A DNA stretch of 64,000 bases from Escherichia coli. GTDB lineage: Bacteria > Pseudomonadota > Gammaproteobacteria > Enterobacterales > Enterobacteriaceae. The position numbers and the translations under genes are program-made. Positions within the stretch are counted from its first letter, which is position 1. The number at the start of each line of letters is the position of its first letter. Shown one piece after another: positions 28,297 to 55,522 of this stretch. The notes below the pieces were generated by a model that worked only from the letters and a program-made list of their open reading frames with translations, made no database searches and was not told the DNA's origin. The stretch is from NCBI GenBank assembly GCA_902500055.1, contig GCA_902500055.1_4131.1; one strand, 5' to 3'.

Positions 28297-28398
28297 GTGT
28301 AGTTCTCCTTGTATTCCTTCTATAGTACACCAGTACTGAAAGGATGTCAAGGGTTTTGTTTATGGGGTAAATATGATATAATGAATAAAGGAGGAAAT

Positions 28399-29304
28399 AT
28401 GTTACCTTTTGTTAGAATGTTTGATTATGGGAATGAAGCTCCATTACCAGCCCCAAATGGTGGTATACGAACTCAATTTACCACATCACCAGTACCTTCA
28501 GCACGAAATAACTTTGGTTATACGTATGATGCATCAAGAAATACTGCTTATATATTTGGTGGTATAATGAATACTTCGAACCAGGATAATCAGTTATGGA
28601 GTTTTAATTTAAATTCTAGAATATGGGTACAATTATCATCACCACCAGTATCCACCTATGGAAGTGCATTGTGTGCCTATCAAGGAAAAATATATTTGTT
28701 CGGTGGTTTAGGTGCAGCGAATGTTGCTAATAATAATTTTTATGTATATGACATAAGCTCTGATACATGGACACTGAATAATACAAGTGTTGGCAAACCT
28801 AACCAGGCAGTATATAGTAAGATGATTACTACAGGGGATAAGATATATTTGTGGGGTTCACCGTCTAATACTGCATTATATAGTTATACGCCGAGTACTA
28901 ATACATGGGCATCGTTAGGTACTACTGGGAATACAACAAACAATGGTGGTGGTGATATGTGCACTGATGGTACTTACATATATTTTACAGGACAAGGATC
29001 TACTCCTGCACAAAAATATCACATAGAGAGTGCGGTTTGGTCAAGAATGGCAGCAGTTGGTGGAGCTAACCCTAGTAAGATAATTTACAATAGATATGAC
29101 AAAGGTATATATGCAGTATCTTATGGTGCATTAAATTTATTAAAATATGATGCCGAGCAAAACAAATGGATACCATTAGCTATCAATACAACGTTGAGTA
29201 ATAGTACTGGTGCATTATTTGGCTCTAATAATAGTGCTGAAATATTTTACGTACTTGGTTACGACAACGGGACACGTGTTAATACGCAGTATGTTTTTAA
29301 ATAA
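28399..29304 (+). CDS. family C member 1: conserved N-terminal peptide + Kelch-like beta-propeller
   Basis: AGGAGGAAAT-ATG; N-terminus MLPFVRMFDYGNEAP; six blades with IY.FGG/W pattern. Confidence 0.8.
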   Translation: MLPFVRMFDYGNEAPLPAPNGGIRTQFTTSPVPSARNNFGYTYDASRNTAYIFGGIMNTSNQDNQLWSFNLNSRIWVQLSSPPVSTYGSALCAYQGKIYLFGGLGAANVANNNFYVYDISSDTWTLNNTSVGKPNQAVYSKMITTGDKIYLWGSPSNTALYSYTPSTNTWASLGTTGNTTNNGGGDMCTDGTYIYFTGQGSTPAQKYHIESAVWSRMAAVGGANPSKIIYNRYDKGIYAVSYGALNLLKYDAEQNKWIPLAINTTLSNSTGALFGSNNSAEIFYVLGYDNGTRVNTQYVFK

Positions 29305-29316
29305 TTTGGAGGAAAT

Positions 29317-30466
29317 ATGTTACCTTTTGTAAGAATGTTTGATTATGGGAATGAAGCACCTACCAACTCTGGGCGTTTTAAAATATATTCCAGTGATTCT
29401 ATGTATCTTCATGATACTTATACTGATAAGTTGTATGCATCTTCTGCGACGAATTGGGGTACTGGTACAGGTGTAGCATCGAGTAAATTTATTCTTTGTG
29501 CGGAGAATGTTAAACGAGTTCTATTGGAAGATAACAGTAGTGATTGTCAATTGTATGAAGAGAAAGGTACTGGAAAAGTTTTTATCACTGGTAACACGAA
29601 GGCATTCACTGGTGTAACTGATAGAAAAACTTTGTGGACGGACTGTACTACGTGGATAACATCAAGTGGTATTAATGTTTCTGATATAAAATACATGAGT
29701 AGTTTTTATGATATGAAGGTGAATTTGATAACAAACGATGGTACATTGTATTGTTGTGGAACTAACAATATATCGAACATATCATCATTTGGTGATGGCA
29801 CAAACATTAATTCTTTTAACACATTCAAAAGAGTAGATACTATAACTTCGGTTAAAAAGGCAGTTGGTAACATTTATTTGCGAGAAGATAATACTTTATG
29901 GGGTTGTGGTTTTAACTATTACTACCAGTTGGGTACTGGTAATCAAACTTCGATTACTGGGGTGACGATGATTTCTTCGGATGTTATAGATTTTGATGTA
30001 AGTTATCAGAGTACATTTTTTTATCAAATCGGATAATAATTTGTACGCATGTGGGAAGCAGTACGGAGCACAATATGGTAATGAATTTGGCACAGGTGGA
30101 ACATCTACTAGTACTGATATTCAATACAAGACTCCTACATTATTGAGTACAGGGGTATATGGTGTATATGCATGTGTTGCTAACATGGCATCACATATTG
30201 TCAAAGCAGATGAAGTTCTATATGCTTCTGGATCGAATGGGTTTGGGCAATTAGGTGTTGGTAATAATAATAATCAGTACTCCTATACTCCTTCATATAC
30301 TTCGTTTAATACTTCGTGTAATTTGGTACGCACTCCATCTGGTTCACTTATACTTACTGACACTTCGAAGTTATATTATTCGGGTGCTTCATTTGTAGTA
30401 ATGGGTGGTAGTGCTGGACAGAACGTTCTTAATTATACCGAAGTCGATATGTCATTTGTGCAGTAA
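29317..30466 (+). pseudogene. family C member 2, interrupted by frameshift at T7 tract (pseudogene, phase-variable or sequencing error)
   Basis: ORF 29317-30036 (MLPFVRMFDYGNEAP...) continues in +1 frame as 30041-30466 with RCC1-like repeats; T7 run at 30016-30022; a T6 run would fuse them into about 383 aa. Confidence 0.6.
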
Positions 30467-30475
30467 ATTAATATA

Positions 30476-30502
30476 CCAGTACTTGATACTGGCTTTTTTT
30501 GA
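30476..30502 (+). terminator. family C cassette terminator hairpin
   Basis: CCAGTACTTGATACTGG followed by T7. Confidence 0.6.
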
Positions 30503-30534
30503 TTAAATATAGTATAATGAATAAAGGAGGAAAT

Positions 30535-31644
30535 ATGTTACCTTTTGTAAGAATGGTTAAGTACGGGAATATTGCACCAGTACCGAAAAAAATAAAGAAA
30601 GTTATAGCAGGATATGATAATTTATATGTACTATATGGTGATGGTTCGCTATATGGTTGTGGAATCAATAACTATCAACAGTTAAATATTGATGGAACTG
30701 CTACACAAAATAATTGGGTACTAATTACCAATGGTGTTAGTAATGCATGGGCTGGTGGATACAATATTTTATATTTGAAAGAAGATAAATTTATAATGCA
30801 CGGAACTAATGTCTCATTAGGTTTAGGAAATACTACAATTCCATTAGGTGGAGTAGATGTAACTTCTTCATTCCCAGATATCTCTAATATTAAAATGATA
30901 TCCATTGGTTTTGATTCAATGCACTATGTTAGTGCTGATGGTACAACTGTATATGGAAGAGGTATGAACACAAATGGTTCTGTTGGTTCAGGTAGTACTT
31001 ACTCACAGAGTACTTTCACTTCAGTACTGAATAATGGAACTAATCAGGTTATTGATATATTTGGTAACGTTAATAATACAGTGCTTCTAACATCGAATGG
31101 TGAGCTTCGAGCATGTGGGACAAGTGCTTATGGTTCTATAGGAAATGAAACTGGTAAGTGGACATCGTTTGGTTTAAAATTATCTGGCACTAAAATAATG
31201 GGTGGTAATGGGTATAGTACGCTTGCATATACAAATTCGGGAATGTACCACTCAGGGTGGCAGTTAAATGGGGAACTAGGAAATGGTTTAGATACTAACG
31301 TACAGGTATATCCATTTCAATTTAACTCTAAAACGATAGATAGCAAGATAGATAAAATTGCCAAATCATCATCTGGGTCATATGTTAACATGTACTCAAC
31401 AACAGAAGGAAAGATATATACGACAGGTTCGTTTGGTAAAAACGGGTCAACTACTGCATTGAATTTGTTCACCAATACATTAACACTTATAAATTACAAT
31501 CCAGATACCGCCTCGTTGTATACGTGCACAAACTTCAGTGTTGTGTATGATGGTAATGAAACTATTGCTGTAAGTGGTAGTCCTACATATGTACCAGGGG
31601 GCGTTGCCGCTAATAGATGGACTACAATTCCATTACCCAAGTAA
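30535..31644 (+). CDS. family C member 3: N-terminal peptide + RCC1-like beta-propeller
   Basis: TATAAT, AGGAGG, MLPFVRMVKYGN; repeats LYGCGINNYQQL, VYGRGMNTNGSVG. Confidence 0.8.
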   Translation: MLPFVRMVKYGNIAPVPKKIKKVIAGYDNLYVLYGDGSLYGCGINNYQQLNIDGTATQNNWVLITNGVSNAWAGGYNILYLKEDKFIMHGTNVSLGLGNTTIPLGGVDVTSSFPDISNIKMISIGFDSMHYVSADGTTVYGRGMNTNGSVGSGSTYSQSTFTSVLNNGTNQVIDIFGNVNNTVLLTSNGELRACGTSAYGSIGNETGKWTSFGLKLSGTKIMGGNGYSTLAYTNSGMYHSGWQLNGELGNGLDTNVQVYPFQFNSKTIDSKIDKIAKSSSGSYVNMYSTTEGKIYTTGSFGKNGSTTALNLFTNTLTLINYNPDTASLYTCTNFSVVYDGNETIAVSGSPTYVPGGVAANRWTTIPLPK

Positions 31645-31650
31645 TACTAT

Positions 31651-31678
31651 GCCAGTACTTGATACTGGCTTTTTTTGA
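31651..31678 (+). terminator. family C cassette terminator hairpin
   Basis: GCCAGTACTTGATACTGGC followed by T-run. Confidence 0.6.
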
Positions 31679-31711
31679 TTAAATATAGTATAATGAATAA
31701 AGGAGGGAATT

Positions 31712-32839
31712 ATGTTACCTTTTGTTAGAATGTTTGATTATGGGAATATAATCGAAGTTAATAATATAAAGAAAAGTGTTGTTAGTTACACTCTTGAAAT
31801 GTTTCTAATGCAAGATGGCACTGTATATGCACACGGTGAAGATTCAAACTATAATGCGGGTTTAAGTACAAAGTTTGTATCGTTAGGAGCAGTTCAACAA
31901 ATCACAACTGAAGTTGATGACTTATGGTTAGGATCGTTTTCCGTTGTTATTAAAGGTGATAAAATATATGGTTCAGGTTCAACATATGCATTCACGAATT
32001 CTAATACTTTCCAACAAGGATATACTGACTGGGCTGTGTATTTCACTGGTATAGATGTTACCCAAATTAAAAAAATGTTATGTGGTTATACAGCATTTAC
32101 ATTAATGAAAGACGGAACACTTTATGGAAGAGGATGGAATCGAAGTGGTTCATTAGGTTTAGGACATAAAAATTATGTTTCAGCGTGGACTGTACTTGAC
32201 ACTAATGTGGATAATATATTTGGCGGTTACCTTGGCGATACATTGTTTAAGATTAAAAACGATGGAACTGTATATGGTTCAGGTTCAAATAACAGCTTTC
32301 AAGTTAAAGCAACATCGGGTGATGCAACCACATTTGTTCCGTTGTTTGATGATATATCTTATGATATAAAATGCAGTTTTGTTTCTGGTGTTGGTTTTGT
32401 AATGATAACATCTGATAATAAAATATATGCAACTGGAACTACTTTTGCTGGTAGTGGTGCACATAGTAAAGTTTTTGATGTTGGTTTTACTATAGGTGAT
32501 ATGAGTAATATATATCATCCTGATTCGTTGGACTATTCGACTAGTGTTGTATTTTTAATTAATGCAGATACAAACAAACTAATAGCAACTGGGCATACCC
32601 CATTTACGGGAAGTAGTTCAAGTTCCCTTCCATATTTTACAGCATTTCAAGAATTCAATTTTACATCGTTCAATTCGAATACACGATATAGTGGGTCTTT
32701 ATACTGGAATACATTTTACGAAGGTAATAATGTATGGATGAATGGATATAATCCTAAAAATACGGGTGGAAAGAATTTCTCATTGTGTTCAATACCGTTA
32801 GATACTATTATTACTAAGCAAATTGATTTACCTTTTTGA
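31712..32839 (+). CDS. family C member 4: N-terminal peptide + RCC1-like beta-propeller
   Basis: MLPFVRMFDYGN; repeats LYGRGWNRSGSLGLG. Confidence 0.8.
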   Translation: MLPFVRMFDYGNIIEVNNIKKSVVSYTLEMFLMQDGTVYAHGEDSNYNAGLSTKFVSLGAVQQITTEVDDLWLGSFSVVIKGDKIYGSGSTYAFTNSNTFQQGYTDWAVYFTGIDVTQIKKMLCGYTAFTLMKDGTLYGRGWNRSGSLGLGHKNYVSAWTVLDTNVDNIFGGYLGDTLFKIKNDGTVYGSGSNNSFQVKATSGDATTFVPLFDDISYDIKCSFVSGVGFVMITSDNKIYATGTTFAGSGAHSKVFDVGFTIGDMSNIYHPDSLDYSTSVVFLINADTNKLIATGHTPFTGSSSSSLPYFTAFQEFNFTSFNSNTRYSGSLYWNTFYEGNNVWMNGYNPKNTGGKNFSLCSIPLDTIITKQIDLPF

Positions 32840-32846
32840 ATACTAT

Positions 32847-32877
32847 GCCAGTACTCAAGTACTGGCTTTTATTTTTG
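32847..32877 (+). terminator. family C cassette terminator hairpin
   Basis: GCCAGTACTCAAGTACTGGC followed by T-run. Confidence 0.6.
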
Positions 32878-32911
32878 ATTAAATATAGTATAATGAATAA
32901 AGGAGGGAAAT

Positions 32912-34105
32912 ATGTTACCTTTTGCTAGAATGGTTAAATACGGGAATAAACTGCCTATTCCTGATCCAGTTGAGTTCACTGATGTTTTACAGCAACATTA
33001 TACTAATGCTATGTATCTACATAAGCCCACGAATACACTATACGGTTATGGTGGTAATAACTTGAGCCAATTAGGTCTAGGGAATCGATCGGCAGTTTCT
33101 ACTTTTACAGTACTGGCAACGCACTGTGCAGCCTTTTGGTTAGGCGTTCATGGATCATTGATGATTGACTTGGATAATAGAATATATTTCACAGGGAATA
33201 CAGTAGCATTCCCCGATTATGGAGATGCAACTCCAGTTAATGGTTATTTTAGAACATGGACTGATGTTACTGCCGCATTTAACAAAATAAATGTACACGC
33301 TAATTTAATCAAGAGTGTACATATAGGTGAAAGTACTAGAATATTACTACACGATGGAAGAGTCGTTGTTTGTGGTAAAAATGCAAATGCCGAATGTGGA
33401 ACAGGTAACCAAAATCCCATTCCAGTACTAACAGTTGTTACTGGTATGGGTGAAGTTTCTCAATTGGCGTGTTCATTACAGGGTACGCACTATCTCAAAA
33501 CAAATAAAGAAGCATGGTTTTGTGGTAAGGATAACTTTGGTGAAAGTGGTGGTGGGACTAGCTCATACGTTTTTACTAATAAATTAATACGAACCAACGT
33601 CGATTATATAAGTACTACTTATGATGTTACCTGGTGGTTTACTGCCGGTAGGGTGTACTGGAGTGGTAGAAACAATTCTGGACAAGCTGGGAATGGTACT
33701 ACTTCAACTACAAACCAATTAACTACAGTTCAGAATTCACAGGTTATAGTGAATATTAGTGATGGTTTCCTGTGTCCTAGTAATATGGGTAACTCAACAA
33801 TTGGTGCACCTATGGCTCAATACCCATCATATGTCAGGAGTGCAGGCATCAATACATATGGTCAAGAAGGGACGGGAAATACAACAATAATTACTTCGTG
33901 GGGGGCGTTTTCTTTAAGTGCGATACAGGGTGGATATGACAATGTTCTTATGGCATCCAAAGACTGGTCCAGAACAATAATTATAACTAAAGATTATAAA
34001 TTATATGCATGTGGGGGCTTTAACGGTTCAGGTAGTAAATTACCGGATGGTACTTACTTAATTAAAACATTAACATTAATGCCAACGCAGTTATGGCAAT
34101 CATAG
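32912..34105 (+). CDS. family C member 5: N-terminal peptide + RCC1-like beta-propeller
   Basis: MLPFARMVKYGN; repeats LYGYGGNNLSQLGLGN, VYWSGRNNSGQAGNG. Confidence 0.8.
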   Translation: MLPFARMVKYGNKLPIPDPVEFTDVLQQHYTNAMYLHKPTNTLYGYGGNNLSQLGLGNRSAVSTFTVLATHCAAFWLGVHGSLMIDLDNRIYFTGNTVAFPDYGDATPVNGYFRTWTDVTAAFNKINVHANLIKSVHIGESTRILLHDGRVVVCGKNANAECGTGNQNPIPVLTVVTGMGEVSQLACSLQGTHYLKTNKEAWFCGKDNFGESGGGTSSYVFTNKLIRTNVDYISTTYDVTWWFTAGRVYWSGRNNSGQAGNGTTSTTNQLTTVQNSQVIVNISDGFLCPSNMGNSTIGAPMAQYPSYVRSAGINTYGQEGTGNTTIITSWGAFSLSAIQGGYDNVLMASKDWSRTIIITKDYKLYACGGFNGSGSKLPDGTYLIKTLTLMPTQLWQS

Positions 34106-34114
34106 GAGAAAATC

Positions 34115-35224
34115 ATGTTACCTTTTGTTAGAATGTTTGATTATGGGAATATCACACCTGGTCCTAAAAATATAATTAAAGTTGGTGCTTCTACACAGGG
34201 TCAATTCTTATTGACAGATTCACATGATTTATATTACATAGGTAGAAATCAAGGTGGTGAATCTGGAAATGGAAATACCAACACAGTATCCTCATGGATA
34301 TTAGTAAGTACAGATGTTTCTAATTTTTTCGTGGGTGATCGTACACTTGTTATTATTAAAAATGATAATACGATATGGTCATCAGGTCAAACGTACTGGT
34401 TCACATCTTCCACAACTACTTCTTACAGTACTGTATTAGTTGATAGAACCAGTTGGTTCACAAATGCAATACCAGTAAGTGAAATTGCTAATATTGTATG
34501 TACATATGGTTTAATATTTGTACTTAGCACTAATTCAGTACTCTATGGTGCAGGGGCTAATGGATATCGTGGTGCTTTAGGTATTGGTTCATCATCAATT
34601 TACACATTAACTCAATGTGCTACTAATGTGCGTAAAGTAATGACGAATTCAAATGACAGTATGTATATTACATTAGATAATAAGTTATATAGTTCTGGGT
34701 GGAATGACAGGGGTCAGCATGGCACGGGGAACCGAACACAAATTAACACGTGGGGATTACGTAGTACTGGAGTAATAGATGCAGCTATTGGTGGACATAC
34801 ACTCAATTACTATAATGGTACATCATATTTCACATGTGGTACAACTCCAAACTTTCTTAGTTCAGATTCAACTACATTCAAAGCAGTTCCTGTAAGTACT
34901 TTACCTAATAATTCACCTTTGTTTATGACAAATTCAGAGGCAACAAGCACGGCTACGCAAATTATATTAACTAGTGCATATCAGAAAGGTATTGGGGGAA
35001 ACCGTGGTTTGGGATTAAACAATTCTCAAACGGGTGCTATCTATAGTGCTGCTAATTTACAATTACCTGTAGAAGTTAGTGAGATTAGTGATGTTGCTTT
35101 TAGTGACGGATTAACATCATTATTAACCAAAGACGGGAATGTATATAGTACTGGATCGTATTACGCCATTCCAGGTGCAAGTGCAGATGTTGCAGTCTTT
35201 ACTAAAATTGATTTACCAAAATAA
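34115..35224 (+). CDS. family C member 6: N-terminal peptide + RCC1-like beta-propeller
   Basis: MLPFVRMFDYGN; follows member 5 with no terminator (co-transcribed); repeats LYSSGWNDRGQHGTGN. Confidence 0.8.
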   Translation: MLPFVRMFDYGNITPGPKNIIKVGASTQGQFLLTDSHDLYYIGRNQGGESGNGNTNTVSSWILVSTDVSNFFVGDRTLVIIKNDNTIWSSGQTYWFTSSTTTSYSTVLVDRTSWFTNAIPVSEIANIVCTYGLIFVLSTNSVLYGAGANGYRGALGIGSSSIYTLTQCATNVRKVMTNSNDSMYITLDNKLYSSGWNDRGQHGTGNRTQINTWGLRSTGVIDAAIGGHTLNYYNGTSYFTCGTTPNFLSSDSTTFKAVPVSTLPNNSPLFMTNSEATSTATQIILTSAYQKGIGGNRGLGLNNSQTGAIYSAANLQLPVEVSEISDVAFSDGLTSLLTKDGNVYSTGSYYAIPGASADVAVFTKIDLPK

Positions 35225-35230
35225 CATAAT

Positions 35231-35260
35231 GCCAGTACTCAAGTACTGGCATTTCTTTTT
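35231..35260 (+). terminator. family C cassette terminator hairpin
   Basis: GCCAGTACTCAAGTACTGGC followed by T-rich run. Confidence 0.6.
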
Positions 35261-35295
35261 GGGGTAAATATAGTATAATGAATAAAGGAGGAATT

Positions 35296-50326: not shown

Positions 50327-50695
50327 CTATCGATTCGGCATATTCTTTCGTAGTCGCAAGAGAAATTCAACCACTGACCATGTTGTAATGAAGGCAATAT
50401 AAGTTGCAAGGAATCCAGTAAGAATAAATGCAACCAGCGTACTACCATTTGGGGAATCAGTTTTAATGCCGATGACACCATCGGCTACAGTGAAACATGT
50501 AGCCATTAATGTGTAACCTACGTACAACACAAAGAAAAACTCATTCTCCATTGAAGGATAGAAACGGTTAAACACTTTATAAAATTTAAAGTACAGTAGG
50601 ATTATACCAACAAAGGCATAGAATGTAAACAGTGTTGTTATAATATATGAGATTAGGTTCAAATTATACATATCAACGCTCCGGTAGATTATCAC
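50327..50695 (-). CDS. family D small polytopic membrane protein
   Basis: ORF track 122 aa; C-terminal RLRKNMPNR. Confidence 0.6.
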   Translation of the reverse strand: MIIYRSVDMYNLNLISYIITTLFTFYAFVGIILLYFKFYKVFNRFYPSMENEFFFVLYVGYTLMATCFTVADGVIGIKTDSPNGSTLVAFILTGFLATYIAFITTWSVVEFLLRLRKNMPNR

Positions 50696-51020
50696 GTAAT
50701 GTTTTAATTCGATGATACATTTTCATACCAATATTACCAAAGATACCATATCCAAGTACTAAAATGTATGCAATAAGCATAGTAATAATTACTATAGTGC
50801 CAAAACTATAATGTACACTACTGATACCCATTGTAGTTTCAACGATTATTTGAGAAACTGAAAGAATCAAAAGTACAACTACAATTGGATGATTTGGGTA
50901 CATTCGGTTGAACAACGTTTTGTACTTAAAGAAGCACAGTACTCCACCGAATAAGAAGTAAACAATGTAAATGCAAGCAACAGCATAGGCAAACATGTTA
51001 GTGTAATAAATCATTTCCAA
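50673..51020 (-). CDS. family D small polytopic membrane protein
   Basis: ORF track 115 aa; C-terminal LRDNLPER. Confidence 0.6.
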   Translation of the reverse strand: MEMIYYTNMFAYAVACIYIVYFLFGGVLCFFKYKTLFNRMYPNHPIVVVLLILSVSQIIVETTMGISSVHYSFGTIVIITMLIAYILVLGYGIFGNIGMKMYHRIKTLRDNLPER

Positions 51021-51023
51021 TCC

Positions 51024-51362
51024 TTACTTTTCAGGGATATTAGAACGCCATATATCAATGCGATGAACTAGTCCAAAGAACAACCATACTGGAACGGCAG
51101 CTATCATAACAACAAATGAAAACCCAGTCAACACCGATACCAGATTTAATTCATCAGTACTATACCCACATATCAGTACTTCTAATATTCCCCACGTACA
51201 TGCACAAAACATCAAGAATGAAATTGGGGCATCATAGTAGATACGTTCATATAAAGTAGTATATCGGAAGAATGCAATAATATAGCAAAACATATAATAC
51301 ACCCAAACCAAAGATACTACATAAAATGATACTTTGTTTATTAATTCAAAATATTGTTCCAT
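51024..51362 (-). CDS. family D small polytopic membrane protein
   Basis: ORF track 112 aa; C-terminal WRSNIPEK. Confidence 0.6.
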   Translation of the reverse strand: MEQYFELINKVSFYVVSLVWVYYMFCYIIAFFRYTTLYERIYYDAPISFLMFCACTWGILEVLICGYSTDELNLVSVLTGFSFVVMIAAVPVWLFFGLVHRIDIWRSNIPEK

Positions 51363-51707: not shown

Positions 51708-52349
51708 TCAATAAAAAACTGGATCTTCTTCAGTAACTGGTATTTCTCTACGTACATCACACGAAAGAGGATCAGTAATGAATACATTGCCATCTTTATC
51801 CATCATCACATTACTTGAATGAATGTCTGGTACAAAACGCCCGTGAAACTCTTTCATGATGTTAGCAGCGACCGTTGCAATAGCAATCTCTTCAGAATTT
51901 CCACGCATATCATTCACTGAAGTAGCGTACTGACCAGCATGTGCATAAGAATATAAATCTCCAATTTTAGTACTAACAAAGTCATCATAATTATTTTTTT
52001 GTTTAATTATAGGATAGTACTTGTCCATCTCATACCATCCAAAGTTTCCTTGTTCGTTGGCACTGTAGATCACTGGAAGAAACTTGGTTCCTGCGTTTTC
52101 AATGCAGTACTTTGCATAAGCACGAAAACCATCCCAGCGTGAAGTGGTTACTTTAAATGCACGTCCAGGATAGTTTTTATGTTCAACTACTACAGAGTAC
52201 ATCCCCATTCCAAGCAAAGTAAGTCCAGCAGCTTTAACTTGTGGAAAGATTACGCGTTCAGCATAAGGAATATCAAACTCCATCGCACAACGAGTTTTTG
52301 ATGGACGCAAAATGTCAATTAAAGTTTTGAATATGTCTTGCTTAGTCAT
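51708..52349 (-). CDS. protein-kinase-like phosphotransferase (putative)
   Basis: Gly-rich LGMGMYSVVV, AFKV lysine, catalytic DIHSSNVMMD, FITDP; start trimmed to Met12 with AGAGGA RBS. Confidence 0.5.
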   Translation of the reverse strand: MTKQDIFKTLIDILRPSKTRCAMEFDIPYAERVIFPQVKAAGLTLLGMGMYSVVVEHKNYPGRAFKVTTSRWDGFRAYAKYCIENAGTKFLPVIYSANEQGNFGWYEMDKYYPIIKQKNNYDDFVSTKIGDLYSYAHAGQYATSVNDMRGNSEEIAIATVAANIMKEFHGRFVPDIHSSNVMMDKDGNVFITDPLSCDVRREIPVTEEDPVFY

Positions 52350-52382
52350 TACTTTATCCTCTGTAGTTAATACCAACATCAT

Positions 52383-52420
52383 AACAAAAAAGGCTGACCG
52401 AAGTCAACCTTTTGTTTTAT
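52383..52420 (-). terminator. UUCG-tetraloop intrinsic terminator (bidirectional)
   Basis: Minus strand GGTTGACTTCGGTCAGCC followed by TTTTTTGTT. Confidence 0.6.
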
Positions 52421-53679
52421 CATTTACCGTATTTGCTCATGATATCCTTTTCCCAAGGAGTTACATTTCCATTTTCGTAATCACGGAAAGAGTCATCAAG
52501 TGTAGTCAATGCATAATCATATGCCTCACCGGATTCAACATCAATGTCAACAGCACCATTCACTACATCAGTCCACGCTTTTTGTAGTTTACGAGCGTTG
52601 TTACCAACTTTATCTTTAATCCAACTAAGATTTCGGTTTATACTCTTCTTATCAGCACCAGCTTTTTCACCAACATCTGCAACCCATTGCATTAATTTCT
52701 GTAGTTCGTTATGGGATTTTTCAGTCATTTGGCGGTCTTGTGACAGTTCAGCTTCCATGTCATCAATTTCTTCGTCTGAATGAACATCATTCTGTTCTAC
52801 TGCACCTTCTTCATCATCACGCATCAGATAACCATCTCGTGTAACCTTCTCACCATGATCAGCTTCATACTTTTTCATAGTATTGAATGCAGCATCCATT
52901 GCAGTTACAAAACGACTCTTTTCACCTTGTACATAAGATTTAAGTGCATCGTTAACTGCATCAGATACTAATTTAATCTTATCGTCTTTACCTTCCAGAC
53001 GGTTTTCTAACTTAGCTAGTACATTCTTAACTTGTTGAGCATTAGCACGGTCTTCTTTACCAATACTATCAAATGTTTTAAGTACGCTTTCAAGACTTAC
53101 TTCCTCTTGTGCAGGCACATCACCTTGTTGCGTACCTTCAAGTGCACGCATTATAGTACTGAATACTTCAGTTGGTTCAGTACTGGTATTTCCACTCATT
53201 GCATCAAGTACAGCTTGTGCTTTGACTTTTAATTCTTCTTTAGGTACAGATTGCAATTCTTTCACAATACCTTGGATAAGTTGTGGTTTATTAGCAAAAA
53301 TCTTACCTAACTTATCAGACAGTTCTTTGACAGGGTTAACCGCCTTTGGTGCTTCTTGTTTTGGTTCTTCTTTCGCAGGAGCAGACTTTTCTTTTTCTTC
53401 ACGTTCCATATCAGCTAGACGTTGTTTTTGTGTAGCATTAAGAAGTCCCAATGAATTAACATAACGTAGCTTTTCTAGCTCAGTCATGTTCTCAGTACTC
53501 TTAACTTCACCTGCTTCTGCGTTTGCCTTACCAGCAAGTCCCGTTCCTTGGTTTCTGGAACCACGTGAACCTTGTCCTGCTTGATAACTATTTTTGCGAC
53601 GATTTCGGTCGGCCCATTTATCCGAGTGTTGTACTAGTCCACCATTACGATGTTTCATATCCCCATTATCTTGTGGCAT
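52420..53679 (-). CDS. hypothetical acidic coiled-coil protein with basic N-terminus
   Basis: ORF track 419 aa; shares YVNSLGLL region with 55024-55407. Confidence 0.65.
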   Translation of the reverse strand: MPQDNGDMKHRNGGLVQHSDKWADRNRRKNSYQAGQGSRGSRNQGTGLAGKANAEAGEVKSTENMTELEKLRYVNSLGLLNATQKQRLADMEREEKEKSAPAKEEPKQEAPKAVNPVKELSDKLGKIFANKPQLIQGIVKELQSVPKEELKVKAQAVLDAMSGNTSTEPTEVFSTIMRALEGTQQGDVPAQEEVSLESVLKTFDSIGKEDRANAQQVKNVLAKLENRLEGKDDKIKLVSDAVNDALKSYVQGEKSRFVTAMDAAFNTMKKYEADHGEKVTRDGYLMRDDEEGAVEQNDVHSDEEIDDMEAELSQDRQMTEKSHNELQKLMQWVADVGEKAGADKKSINRNLSWIKDKVGNNARKLQKAWTDVVNGAVDIDVESGEAYDYALTTLDDSFRDYENGNVTPWEKDIMSKYGK

Positions 53680-53683
53680 ATTT

Positions 53684-54226
53684 TTAATCCTCTATCCATG
53701 TTTGATTGTATAAAATACGACGTATTGTTTTTTTACATACACGGTATTTATTACAATTTTCTCGTGCATATTCTATCACATCATTATAATTATCATTATA
53801 ATCTTTTCTTATTTCTCTTACAATTTCCCATGTCAACACAGCAGCACCACGATTAGTTGTTGCGTTACCATGTGAATAAGAATATAGTACGTTTTCAGAT
53901 GCTGTGTTCCATTCCAAATTCAAATAGTGATTGTTACTTCTATTACAATCTTTATGGTTTATGTGAACAACTTTTTTCTTTGTTCTACTCGCCCACTGTA
54001 ACTGTTTCTGTGTGGGTGGTGGTAAAAATGCTTCAGCTACTAGTCGATGAATCGCCTTTCTATTTTTCACAGAATTGCGATACAAATCGACCTTCACATA
54101 CCCATCTTTATTTTTAAATCCACAACTTATATATCCAGTTTGTTCGTTTCTTACTCTTCCATGATCAGAAATTGAATAGTCATAATCAGGAATTAATTTC
54201 CAACGTTCCATGTTTATTTCTTCCAT
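53684..54226 (-). CDS. HNH homing endonuclease
   Basis: N-terminal WKLIPDY...YSISDHGRVRN, HRLVAEAF, HINH.D..R.NN...NLEW. Confidence 0.75.
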   Translation of the reverse strand: MEEINMERWKLIPDYDYSISDHGRVRNEQTGYISCGFKNKDGYVKVDLYRNSVKNRKAIHRLVAEAFLPPPTQKQLQWASRTKKKVVHINHKDCNRSNNHYLNLEWNTASENVLYSYSHGNATTNRGAAVLTWEIVREIRKDYNDNYNDVIEYARENCNKYRVCKKTIRRILYNQTWIED

Positions 54227-54229
54227 TAT

Positions 54230-54265
54230 ATATAAAGGTTGACCGAAGTCAACCCTATTTTCACT
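54230..54265 (-). terminator. UUCG-tetraloop intrinsic terminator
   Basis: GGTTGACCGAAGTCAACC perfect hairpin. Confidence 0.5.
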
Positions 54266-54276
54266 GTACTATACCA

Positions 54277-54573
54277 TTAGTAGTTACAGTCAGCTTTCGC
54301 TGTGAATGTTTTACTTTCTCCGCGTTGTGTGGTGATTCGTCCGAGTAAAGTAGTTTTGTCAATAGTCATTGTAGTTAGTACTGGAACATTACCTTCAAAG
54401 TCAATAGCTTTGAAATTGTAGGTGGTTTCATTCTCCACTACACTTGGACCAAAGAGTTCATATGTGTTGATTTCAAGTGTGTCACCATCTGAACGCAACA
54501 GTGTGCAGTCCAGATTAGGAGTAGCCAGTACAGGGAAAGCCAAACACATTATCATTGCTATAATTAATTTCAT
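54277..54573 (-). CDS. secreted protein (signal peptide)
   Basis: N-terminus MKLIIAMIMCLAFPVLA. Confidence 0.55.
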   Translation of the reverse strand: MKLIIAMIMCLAFPVLATPNLDCTLLRSDGDTLEINTYELFGPSVVENETTYNFKAIDFEGNVPVLTTMTIDKTTLLGRITTQRGESKTFTAKADCNY

Positions 54574-54833
54574 TTCACTTCTCCTGATTTTTTCTTAGGA
54601 TCAACCAATGACCAAATGAAGAATCCGAGAATTACAAGTACCCACAGAATCATGATAAAGAAAGCAAACAGTACAATAGTATTTGTCAAAAAGAAATACA
54701 ATAGAATGTTCGACCCAATACTACATACAATCAATGCAGCTTCATGTTTAACAACACGAATGGCTGTAATGAGTGCGGGAAGAAATCCGACAAATAACAG
54801 TACTAACGCATATAGTGATAATGTTTCAGCCAT
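54570..54833 (-). CDS. small membrane protein
   Basis: ORF track 87 aa; hydrophobic helices. Confidence 0.5.
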   Translation of the reverse strand: MAETLSLYALVLLFVGFLPALITAIRVVKHEAALIVCSIGSNILLYFFLTNTIVLFAFFIMILWVLVILGFFIWSLVDPKKKSGEVK

Positions 54834-54989
54834 GATATCCCTTATTTGGTTTGTTCAACACTAGGTGTATTGATATAGGTGTCAATTGAATAACATACTG
54901 TACCCACTACAACAGCAGCGATTAGGGCAGCAACTACAAATTTCAAACCTTGCATATATGATACCTCAGTTATATTGAGAAGTTATGAT

Positions 54990-55030
54990 ACAACAAAGGG
55001 CTGACCTTAGTCAACCATTTTTATTACTTC
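54990..55030 (-). terminator. tetraloop intrinsic terminator
   Basis: GGCTGACCTTAGTCAACC with flanking A/T runs. Confidence 0.45.
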
Positions 55031-55407
55031 TTGAACTTATGTTTTTCACTTTCGATTGCATTCACGATTTCATCATGAATTTTACGAAGATTGTGAGTTT
55101 TCTTTAGAGAATCATGCAATGCACGGAATGCAGAGTGTACAGTTGCTTTAAAGTGCTCTTTAGGAGTTACTTTAAGTTTCTCGATAATATCACGTACATA
55201 GATTGGGTGATCCTCAAACACACGATTAAGCTCATGGCCTAGTGATTCTAGGCTAAATGCTTTTTCACGGGATGGACGATCATGTGCAAGACTTTGGTCT
55301 GGTTTTAGAAGACCTAGTGAATCTAGATACTTGTGCTTATGTGCATTGTCTAGACCAGAAATATCAACATCATGTGATGGATCTTTCTTATTCCATTTAC
55401 CAACCAT
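55024..55407 (-). CDS. hypothetical protein (shares domain with 52420-53679)
   Basis: KYLDSLGLLKPDQ and HPIYVRDIIEKLKVTPKEHFKA parallel RYVNSLGLLNATQ and KPQLIQGIVKELQSVPKEELKV. Confidence 0.6.
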   Translation of the reverse strand: MVGKWNKKDPSHDVDISGLDNAHKHKYLDSLGLLKPDQSLAHDRPSREKAFSLESLGHELNRVFEDHPIYVRDIIEKLKVTPKEHFKATVHSAFRALHDSLKKTHNLRKIHDEIVNAIESEKHKFKK

Positions 55408-55522
55408 TTTTATAACTCCTATAAGAGATAAATTTTACTATAATATTTATAGTTCCGTTGTCATTTATATCGAATGACATAAAACATTATATCATAATAA
55501 GAATGGTTGTCCCAAAGTTAAA

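Follow-up and report, generated by a model that had tools for sequence, protein, structure and literature searches.

Two groups of phage proteins lend themselves to comparison with the family analyzed here, namely the inner-body proteins of phiKZ (gp89, gp90, gp93, gp95, gp97 and gp162) and the internal proteins IPI, IPII and IPIII of T4 together with Alt. Those of phiKZ are processed extensively, at S/A/G-x-E, by a protease different from that of the phage described here. In T4, the genes for the internal proteins are placed apart from the head and tail modules, and the capsid-targeting sequence is about 10 residues long and ends in an L/I-x-E cleavage site. Among phages close to the present one, a radiation-sensitive inner body has been seen in 121Q and phAPEC6 (PMC5646251, PMC7247149).

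The DNA that we analyzed (a stretch of 64 kb, here called the window) belongs to an Asteriusvirus-type jumbo coliphage of the 121Q/PBECO4/phAPEC6 group, and the two genes under study are listed with their surroundings in Table 1. Orthologues of the long gene are phAPEC6 gp035c, 121Q gp201 and RaK2 gp275, and those of the short gene are phAPEC6 gp037c and 121Q gp199; identity to family members from E. coli phages was 96-100% for the long protein (100% to P0001 and 96% to the phAPEC6 protein P0005) and 98% for the short one. The long protein matched PHROG 20398 (E = 8.7e-170) and, over residues 12-182, PHROG 16530 (E = 4.2e-33), which was also matched by the short protein (E = 3.5e-56). The two PHROGs carry the label "virion structural protein", and CBB_38 and BF_0027 belong to the same family. 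Virion proteins of this kind were already known, and the PHROG matches by themselves reveal the paralogy.

Gene order in the window was the same as for the known members, and compared with relatives the window lacked three small genes downstream of the long gene, on the side of the kinase. The long gene is flanked by this kinase gene and small ORFs and is distant from the sheath and baseplate genes; both family genes are outside the head and tail modules, beside early-type genes such as that of a T7 gp0.7-like kinase. Matches by tblastn were found in Asteriusvirus, Alcyoneusvirus, Eneladusvirus, Mimasvirus, Munch-like and Xanthomonas jumbo phages, and when 1.84 billion representative proteins were searched with a profile, 36 clusters only were returned, with no enzyme fusions. 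A few long matches in the latter search ran via short repeated segments and are presumed to reflect low complexity. Neither protein had a significant family in Pfam or NCBIfam, Foldseek against BFVD returned RaK2-like family members alone, and the Pfam, NCBIfam, profile and Foldseek searches together found no sequence or fold link outside the family. By these searches, the family is confined to RaK2/121Q-like jumbo phages.

Table 1. Features of the locus and of the long protein, with positions in the 64-kb window
Feature	Position	Strand	Description and basis
Long-form gene, putative virion protein	52420..53679	-	419 aa, 46.7 kDa, pI 5.15; ORF list
Residues 1-60, basic, Gly/Arg-rich, predicted disordered (..HSDKW..NRR.NS..AGQGSRGSRNQGTG..)	53500..53679	-	composition, pLDDT <50
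Residues 66-80, short helix with invariant K-x-x-Y-x-x-x-L-G-L-L (EKLRYVNSLGLL)	53440..53484	-	alignment and AF2
Residues 116-183, four-helix bundle common to the 127-aa protein (..PVKELSDKLGKIF..P..I..IV..L...PKE..)	53131..53334	-	alignment, AF2
Residues 186-304, acidic helical middle region	52768..53124	-	occupancy map, charge
Residues 305-419, C-terminal helical domain of all long forms	52423..52767	-	pLDDT >90, occupancy map
Intrinsic-terminator-like hairpin AGGTTGAC-TTCG-GTCAGCCT and T-run	52386..52410	-	directly 3' of long gene; sequence read
Predicted homing-endonuclease gene (NUMOD4 and HNH_3), not of the family	53684..54226	-	Pfam, PHROG 59
Similar hairpin GGTTGAC-TAAG-GTCAGCC	54999..55016	-	directly 3' of short gene
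Short-form paralogue gene	55024..55407	-	127 aa, pI 9.25; ORF list
TATAAATA, T4-type (gp55) late promoter	55444..55451	-	36 nt upstream of the short gene's ATG

In pairwise BLASTP the long and short proteins aligned over 93 residues at 26% identity (E = 4e-8), and they are true paralogues. The domain that the initial annotation had proposed to be shared between them was thus borne out, by this alignment and by the match of both to PHROG 16530. The family's own profile, run against the six-frame translation of the window, detected these two ORFs only (E = 1e-77 and 2e-39; next E = 1.9); the window and the phAPEC6 head module yielded no other paralogue and no other protein with the motifs. The two proteins carry RYVNSLGLL (long, residues 72-80) and KYLDSLGLL (short, residues 26-34), followed by I...L...PKE at residues 138-148 and 74-84 respectively. 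Within the pattern KxxLxxxIxxxLxxxPKE originally ascribed to both, the I..L..PKE part was present in each, whereas the leading KxxL was present in the long protein (KPQL) but not in the short one (HPIY). Homology exceeds the two motifs: the 127-aa protein can be aligned over its full length to residues ~20-183 of the long one, and both have a KxxYxxxLG(L/I)(L/M) helix and then a four-helix bundle with L..F..P..I..L..PKE (alignment and AF2). The columns invariant across 30 members are, in long-protein numbering, K70, Y73, L77, G78, L124, F128, P132, I138, L142 and K151.

The common unit of the family is an N-terminal module composed of a basic disordered RG-rich segment, the KxxYxxxLGLL helix and the four-helix bundle, and most members, of about 155-180 aa, contain nothing else. 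In the 127-aa protein, the module has kept the LGLL helix and the bundle but has lost the RG-rich segment by deletion; the AF2 model of this protein (pLDDT 68.9) has helices at residues 53-63, 68-79, 83-103 and 107-126. In the 419-aa protein, acidic helical cassettes and then a conserved C-terminal helical domain are appended to the module. A targeting module fused to diverse cargo was also considered but not supported, as the search of 1.84 billion proteins returned stand-alone modules and one long-form architecture only.

The N-terminus of the long protein is basic and Gly/Arg-rich, as first described (residues 1-60: net charge +5, pI 10.3, 17% Gly). This segment was kept in all RaK2-like genera (tblastn, 70 phage records; alignment) and is part of the same ancestral module as the shared domain. 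In the AF2 model, helix 67-76 had a pLDDT of about 80-87 and the bundle helices were at residues 116-127, 132-144, 147-163 and 169-180. In the middle region, extra cassettes of ~80-100 aa are present or absent among relatives; across an occupancy map of 54 homologues, long forms ranged from 412 to 606 aa, with indels of whole cassettes between otherwise >80-90% identical phages. The net charge was -18 for residues 186-419 and -14 for the whole protein, which is acidic (pI 5.15); the "highly acidic" body of the initial annotation holds for about residues 270-320 and 370-410 only. The coiled-coil body was not supported: the AF2 model consists of bundled helices of 10-20 residues (the longest has 20), without long coiled coils. 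The possibility that the body is made of repeats of the shared bundle was rejected as well, with hhalign probabilities of <2% between family sub-alignments.

Orthologues from three phages have been detected in virions by mass spectrometry (MS) in independent studies, which bear on the window's phage through these relatives. In phAPEC6, gp035c was identified by 8 peptides (28.8% coverage) and gp037c by 5 peptides (48% coverage) (PMC7247149), and these two are 96-98% identical to the window proteins. RaK2 gp275 was identified by 20 peptides (34.3% coverage; PMC3622015 Table S3), a number of unique peptides surpassed only by the tail sheath (PMC3622015), and CBB_38 by 9 peptides (56.6% coverage; PMC5259590). 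Because the C-terminal bundle alone could give at most 42% coverage of CBB_38, at least part of its N-half is retained in the particle. With significant homology between the two proteins, orthologues of the family in the virions of phAPEC6, RaK2 and CBB and a late promoter upstream of the short gene, the assignment of both window genes as encoding predicted virion proteins is supported.

The late promoter TATAAATA occurred once in the 64-kb window, as compared with 13.4±3.8 expected matches. In phAPEC6 it lies 17-48 nt upstream of the genes for the major capsid protein (MCP), the scaffold and four other late genes, and 6/6 copies in the head/baseplate module are intergenic and on the correct strand. 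It also precedes the two family genes of phAPEC6, the two of 121Q, RCIP178 and Munch_040, so that the family gene has a gp55-type promoter in RCIP0023 as well as in Munch; the family genes of RaK2 and L013/L014 have a one-mismatch version, and CBB_38 and BF_0027 have a sigma-70-like promoter in its place. In the window no TATAAATA was found upstream of the 419-aa gene, where the HNH gene occupies the promoter position, and late expression of this gene is assumed. The hairpin element downstream of the long gene also occurs in other intergenic regions.

The stop codon of the HNH gene (Pfam HNH_3, E = 3.6e-7; NUMOD4, E = 4e-7) precedes the start of the long gene by 4 nt, at a position where relatives carry a hairpin-adjacent late promoter (comparison with phAPEC6 and fEgEco12). 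The HNH gene replaced the late promoter and the first 17 codons of the long gene, with the breakpoint versus phAPEC6 at 53628/53629. Unlike the catalogued family members, the window's long gene thus has an HNH gene in place of the late promoter and a variant 17-codon N-terminal allele that travels with it, an arrangement common to phage EC.P1 and the contigs encoding P0033. Homing-endonuclease genes of two types were observed at the 5' end of this same virion gene, each with its own 5'-end allele. Like free-standing homing endonucleases in T4-like phages (intronless homing, e.g. of the Seg/Mob type), the HNH gene lies between genes and directly adjoins a highly conserved coding sequence, and it is accompanied by a divergent allele of the neighbouring presumed target. 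The HNH insertion is a feature of the locus and not of the function of the protein family.

Since the mass predicted for the MCP cleaved after L-T-E43 (37.2 kDa) fits the reported 37 kDa and the scaffold is enriched in the motif (24 sites, 3.4-fold), [LI]xE is likely the prohead-protease site of the phage. The 419-aa protein has none (0 observed versus 4.0 expected, P = 0.016), and the long forms, which are homologous and hence non-independent sequences, together have 8 versus 38 expected (ratio 0.21), with D, K and Q enriched at the E position; the ratio in the window's other ORFs was 0.95. However, [LI]xxE was also low in the long forms (0.32) and the short forms were not depleted of [LI]xE (the 127-aa protein has one, IIE at residues 74-76 within the bundle). 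With related sequences, a low [LI]xxE count and undepleted short forms, the depletion was rejected as proof of an internal location and is kept as a hint only. An [LIVM]xE site at residues 117-119 of the long protein is conserved in 45/54 sequences and is not kept in the window-type short forms of 125-127 aa. Propeptide removal at this site (after the E of V-K-E-L) was not supported, though long forms might still undergo it: Val at P3 is atypical for the protease, the site is absent from CBB_38, and the MS coverage of CBB_38 requires peptides from the N-half.

The initial annotation held the features of the long protein compatible with an ejected or internal virion protein, and the evidence for such a location is indirect and no more than suggestive. 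We tentatively favour the reading, at somewhat less than even confidence, that the two proteins are paralogous virion structural proteins of a RaK2/121Q-like jumbo myovirus, anchored by the module and most probably inside the head. The conserved N-terminal module would bring the protein into the particle or anchor it there, and the variable acidic body of the long form would be tolerated "cargo". The proteins would then reside in or alongside the inner body, would probably be untrimmed by the prohead protease at canonical L/I-x-E sites and, if internal, may leave with the DNA. Several hints point to an internal location: i) the inner body itself; ii) the [LI]xE depletion; iii) the variation in length by cassettes; iv) the placement of the genes outside the head and tail modules. 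A role as lattice component or ruler is hard to reconcile with long forms that differ by whole-cassette indels. On the other hand, RCC1-like proteins were the inner-body candidates preferred in the phAPEC6 study (PMC7247149), which counts against our proposal, as do the sigma-70-like promoters of CBB_38 and BF_0027, the lost late promoter of the window's long gene and the limits of the depletion signal given above. A stronger version, which we consider doubtful, is that the family is or nucleates the inner body of 121Q/RaK2-like phages, with the N-module docking, the RG tail contacting DNA, the long form injected and its acidic cassettes acting on the host; such host-acting cassettes would account for both cassette turnover and avoided protease sites.

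Likeness to the phiKZ inner-body proteins is functional and hypothetical: in both cases abundant, non-lattice virion proteins of jumbo phages form small paralogous families, and bubblegrams reveal an inner body in the head. No sequence or fold similarity to them was found (PMC7247149 authors; BFVD search), and unlike in phiKZ the window-type phage has a T4 gp21-like protease, whose motif is not used but avoided. With T4 IPI/IPII/IPIII and Alt the family shares a phage background of gp21-like protease, gp23-like MCP and gp55-type late promoter, genes outside the main head module and an N-terminal element common to otherwise different virion proteins. Unlike in T4, this element spans about 120-180 aa as a module, lacks an L/I-x-E end site and is at least partly retained in virions; a short capsid-targeting sequence of the T4 type was not found in the N-terminus of the 419-aa protein.

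The retention in virions would also be expected of prohead-core or assembly proteins that, like T4 gp67/gp68, associate with the scaffold, build or size the T=28 head and persist as leftovers. The phage has a T4-type scaffold and protease, the proteins are predicted to be late-expressed and are virion-associated, and the small conserved module could dock on scaffold, portal or MCP; however, the genes of such proteins normally sit in the head module and their products are degraded at many protease sites (24 [LI]xE sites in the scaffold versus 0 in the 419-aa protein), and an essential assembly role fits poorly with cassette turnover and with the loss of the late promoter in the window, which makes this unlikely. 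We regard as rather improbable an external location in an appendage or decoration, for instance as part or anchor of the hair-like capsid or tail fibres of phAPEC6, 121Q and CBB. These phages do carry fibres and decoration densities (PMC7247149 figure legends; PMC5259590), and the long protein is helical, acidic and length-variable like some fibre proteins and fairly abundant in MS. Yet the AF2 model shows compact bundles of short helices, neither a fibre nor a trimeric coiled coil; lattice-bound decoration proteins are normally fixed in length; and [LI]xE depletion is unexpected for an outside protein added after maturation. Moreover, CBB_38 has a homologue in GAP32 (GAP32_032), whereas the CBB tail-hair genes are expected among those absent from GAP32, if GAP32 is indeed hairless (PMC5259590).

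It is very unlikely that the proteins are non-structural DNA- or particle-binding proteins that co-purify with virions, as the published label "chromosome segregation protein/SMC" might imply. Contamination does occur, as the virion lists of phAPEC6 and RaK2 include SSB, RecA-like, PhoH-like and thymidylate synthase proteins (PMC7247149, PMC3622015), and the basic RG-rich N-terminus could bind DNA; but detection in three phages and laboratories with high peptide counts, and a canonical late promoter common to the family and capsid genes, argue otherwise. For the SMC label itself (GenBank, phAPEC6 gp035c), the best Pfam match was an unrelated DUF (E = 0.035), no SMC, ATPase or other Pfam domain was matched, and an SMC coiled coil would need longer helices than those predicted. 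Least credible, and barely so, is a long form acting as a tail-internal or tape-measure-like protein: it is all-helical and had very weak matches to NCBIfam RcGTA_tape (E = 0.064) and in Foldseek against BFVD (E = 0.2-0.5), but these are at noise level. Against a tape measure speak a length varying by as much as 190 aa among close relatives and a gene far from the tail module; in addition, the 127-aa paralogue and the single-module forms of 155-180 aa cannot be rulers.

As found, the two genes matter little, their products being near-identical to catalogued virion proteins. What is added is a description of the domains (an N-module and a C-terminal domain, both conserved, with variable cassettes between them) and grounds for dropping the published "chromosome segregation/SMC" label. 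The locus also offers a tidy natural example of homing-endonuclease genes at a conserved virion gene. For the biology of 121Q-type phages, the family is a concrete, testable candidate for inner-body or internal proteins, and if the long form is indeed injected, its acidic cassettes could be DNA mimics or anti-defence factors.

Both open reading frames of the initial annotation, encoding proteins of 419 and 127 aa, were found on the minus strand, and the domain they were proposed to share was confirmed by pairwise BLASTP (E=4e-8, 26% identity across 93 aligned positions). Both proteins matched PHROG 16530 and the long protein also matched PHROG 20398, the label of each being "virion structural protein"; moreover, a family profile built from 30 members and run on the six-frame translation of the window picked out exactly these two ORFs. 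The two motifs originally singled out were the best-conserved portions of the family (invariant positions K70, Y73, L77 and G78, followed by L124, F128, P132, I138, L142 and K151), but the homology is not confined to them and spans the whole short protein. The basic Gly/Arg-rich N-terminus of the long protein is likewise present but not a separate feature: it belongs to the ancestral module, because stand-alone homologues in other genera have it (BF_0027 of a Serratia phage, 155 aa; CBB_38, 172 aa; Munch_040, 177 aa; and metagenomic proteins P0084-P0097). Aligned to this module, the 127-aa copy has a clean ~29-residue deletion and has lost the first ~20 residues.

In the AF2 model of the long protein (54-sequence alignment, mean pLDDT 72.9), residues 1-60 were disordered and were followed by a short LGLL-motif helix, a low-confidence Pro/Lys/Glu-rich linker, a four-helix bundle (116-180) and two more all-helical regions, with pLDDT >90 in the final one (302-419); the same LGLL helix and four-helix bundle were predicted for the short protein. 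The body had been described as a coiled coil, which the model does not support since no AF2 helix exceeds 20 residues; that it consists of repeats of the shared bundle was rejected by profile-profile comparison. Among the 54 homologues compared, long forms ranged from 412 to 606 aa, with whole cassettes of ~80-100 aa there or missing between otherwise very similar phages and with the N-terminal module and C-terminal domain constant. Structure and fold searches found no solved structure or informative fold match among relatives.

The 51.5-56.6 kb part of the window is 93-98% identical in nucleotides to Asteriusvirus-type jumbo coliphages, including phAPEC6, 121Q, PBECO4, SP27 and G17. For the 419-aa protein, identity was 100% with a database entry encoded on a 354-kb contig that bears the label E. 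coli and 96% with phAPEC6 gp035c; the 127-aa protein shares 98.4% identity with phAPEC6 gp037c and with 121Q gp199. With the N-terminal 90 residues as tblastn query, the module was present in 70 phage records, usually once per genome, from Asteriusvirus, Alcyoneusvirus (RaK2, K64-1), Eneladusvirus (BF, fHe-Yen9-04, pEa_SNUABM), Mimasvirus (CBB, GAP32), Munch-like Salmonella phages and Xanthomonas jumbo phages. When 1.84 billion representative proteins were searched exhaustively with a profile, only 36 clusters matched; therefore the family is narrow and clade-specific.

The proposal of a virion protein was supported by promoter evidence and by published proteomics of orthologues: i) in phAPEC6 virions, 8 unique peptides covered 28.8% of gp035c and 5 peptides covered 48% of gp037c (PMC7247149); ii) RaK2 gp275 yielded 20 peptides (34.3%), a virion count exceeded by the tail sheath alone (PMC3622015 Table S3); iii) CBB_38 yielded 9 peptides (56.6%) (PMC5259590); its C-terminal bundle could by itself give no more than 42% coverage, and therefore part of its N-terminal half is in the mature particle. 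The 419-aa and 127-aa proteins are already catalogued as structural components of the virion, with no function assigned.

Copies of the T4 gp55-type late promoter TATAAATA are strongly depleted from the window (one versus 13.4±3.8 expected), and the single copy precedes the short gene. In 50 kb of phAPEC6 with head and baseplate genes and a gp55-like sigma factor, all six copies were intergenic, correctly oriented and 17-48 nt upstream of genes, including major capsid and scaffold, and all six precede late or structural genes. Each of the phAPEC6 and 121Q loci has just two copies, one upstream of each family gene; the RCIP0023 and Munch homologues have it at -42, those of RaK2 and contigs L013/L014 have it with one mismatch, and CBB_38 and BF_0027 carry a consensus sigma-70-type promoter in its place. 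The RCC1-like beta-propeller repeat genes, whose products are called "DNA condensation proteins" in phAPEC6, have no TATAAATA upstream, and several of their products are seen in virions at low coverage.

Features of the family locus and its surroundings (L numbers are compared phage loci or contigs)
Feature	Window position	Strand	Remark
RCC1-like gene array	28309-43468	+	~13 tandem paralogues, 240-415 aa
Tandem paralogous small membrane proteins	50327-51362	-	three; 112, 115 and 122 aa
T7 gp0.7-like protein kinase gene	51708-52382	-	directly downstream of long gene
Junction of ~1-kb absence	52383-52433		L001 2434-3471; between kinase and long virion genes
GC-rich hairpin copies	52386-52410, 54237-54255, 54999-55016	-	
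Long gene (419 aa)	52420-53679	-	
Segment differing from phAPEC6	53629-54911		1283 nt, versus 201 nt in phAPEC6
Endonuclease-like gene and linked allele of long gene's 5' end	53629-54226	-	two gene types, also L011/L012, L013/L014, L007, L009
HNH gene	53684-54226	-	
Hairpin with TTGACT, 16 nt, TATAAT overlapping TATATATA	54227-54255	-	abuts annotated HNH ATG
98-aa signal-peptide or lipoprotein-like protein	54277-54573	-	between paralogues
87-aa membrane protein	54570-54833	-	between paralogues
Short gene (127 aa)	55024-55407	-	
TATAAATA late promoter	55444-55451	-	36 nt upstream of short gene's ATG

A phiKZ-like inner body has been seen by bubblegram in 121Q (PMC5646251) and in phAPEC6, where it measures 91 x 18 nm and where the authors guessed RCC1-like proteins as its components (PMC7247149); a 2026 review mentions inner-body proteins for phiKZ alone. 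For the present family "internal or ejected", as first suggested, is a reasonable guess, and we hold a place in the inner body or among ejected proteins tentatively, at somewhat less than an even chance; the main rivals are a core protein retained in the particle and an external appendage. The phage has a T4 gp21-like prohead protease, with [LI]xE as its likely site: cleavage of the capsid protein after L-T-E43 would leave 37.2 kDa, in agreement with the reported 42.2 to 37 kDa shift, and the scaffold has 24 sites versus 7 expected. The 419-aa protein has none versus 4.0 expected (P=0.016), and eight diverse long forms, whose sequences are related, together have 8 versus 38 expected (ratio 0.21), while D, K and Q at the same offset are enriched 1.26-1.62 in long forms and the [LI]xE ratio in other window ORFs is 0.95. 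[LI]xxE is likewise depleted in long forms (0.32); no [LI]xE depletion was seen in short forms. The depletion hints at a flexible protein that would share the prohead with active protease and need to survive it, and the variation in length by whole cassettes speaks against a part in a lattice, as decoration or as tape measure.

T4-type internal proteins in the strict sense carry a short CTS ending in L/I-x-E, and this identity was rejected since the family proteins have no such CTS; nor do phiKZ inner-body proteins show homology to the family. The GenBank label "chromosome segregation protein/SMC" has no support either: neither an ATPase nor an SMC domain was found, and the AF2 model shows no long coiled coil.

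In the fEgEco12/BF17 clade the order is intergenic hairpin, TATAAATA, long gene; in the window, as in phage EC.P1, exactly this position is taken by a NUMOD4/HNH_3 endonuclease gene, which in the window ends 4 nt before the long gene. As the HNH gene occupies the promoter position, the long gene in the window is without its own late promoter, so that its transcription would have to come either from the hairpin-embedded TTGACT-16 nt-TATAAT/TATATATA element upstream of the HNH gene or from read-through. On related contigs gene callers chose the second ATG of the HNH gene (175 aa). The 98-aa and 87-aa ORFs are confined to the fEgEco12/BF17/EC.P1 subclade; in one record their annotation reads "immunity to superinfection / membrane protein".

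Successive genes are followed by near-identical copies of a GC-rich hairpin, GGTTGAC-TTCG/TAAG-GTCA(A/G)CC, which also marks indel junctions relative to phAPEC6 and 121Q, because of which it may act as a terminator and at the same time as a hotspot of recombination. About 1 kb with three small genes (121Q genes 202-204, phAPEC6 gp032c-gp034c) is missing from the window, with the junction in this repeated element. The kinase gene (PHROG 15752, E=2.5e-97) adjoins the long gene, and thus an early-type host-takeover gene lies beside late virion genes. The tandem small membrane proteins have similar basic tails (..RSNIPEK, ..RDNLPER, ..RKNMPNR); a Pfam search of the 112-aa and 115-aa proteins gave no matching family.

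The long gene has three N-terminal alleles, each with its own upstream neighbour: i) the canonical allele, with the late promoter and no upstream endonuclease gene; ii) the MPQDNGDMKHRNGG allele, linked to the HNH gene, also on a 121Q-like 497-aa background; iii) the MPSDYNNGDMKHRNGA allele, linked to a 394-398-aa gene with CapR, treble-clef and DUF723 domains in RaK2 and E. coli-phage contigs. In the window, which has the HNH gene, the first 17 codons are a non-canonical allele, with 79% DNA identity to Klebsiella phage RCIP0023. Furthermore, Munch_039, an HNH protein 30% identical to that of the window, is encoded immediately upstream of Munch_040. In different phages, two endonuclease-like gene types hence share one site, directly preceding the long gene, and the divergent alleles linked to them cover the first ~20-50 codons. 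This linkage looks like intronless homing with co-conversion, and the pattern fits homing endonucleases that would target the strongly conserved 5' end of the long gene, the flanking allele being co-converted.
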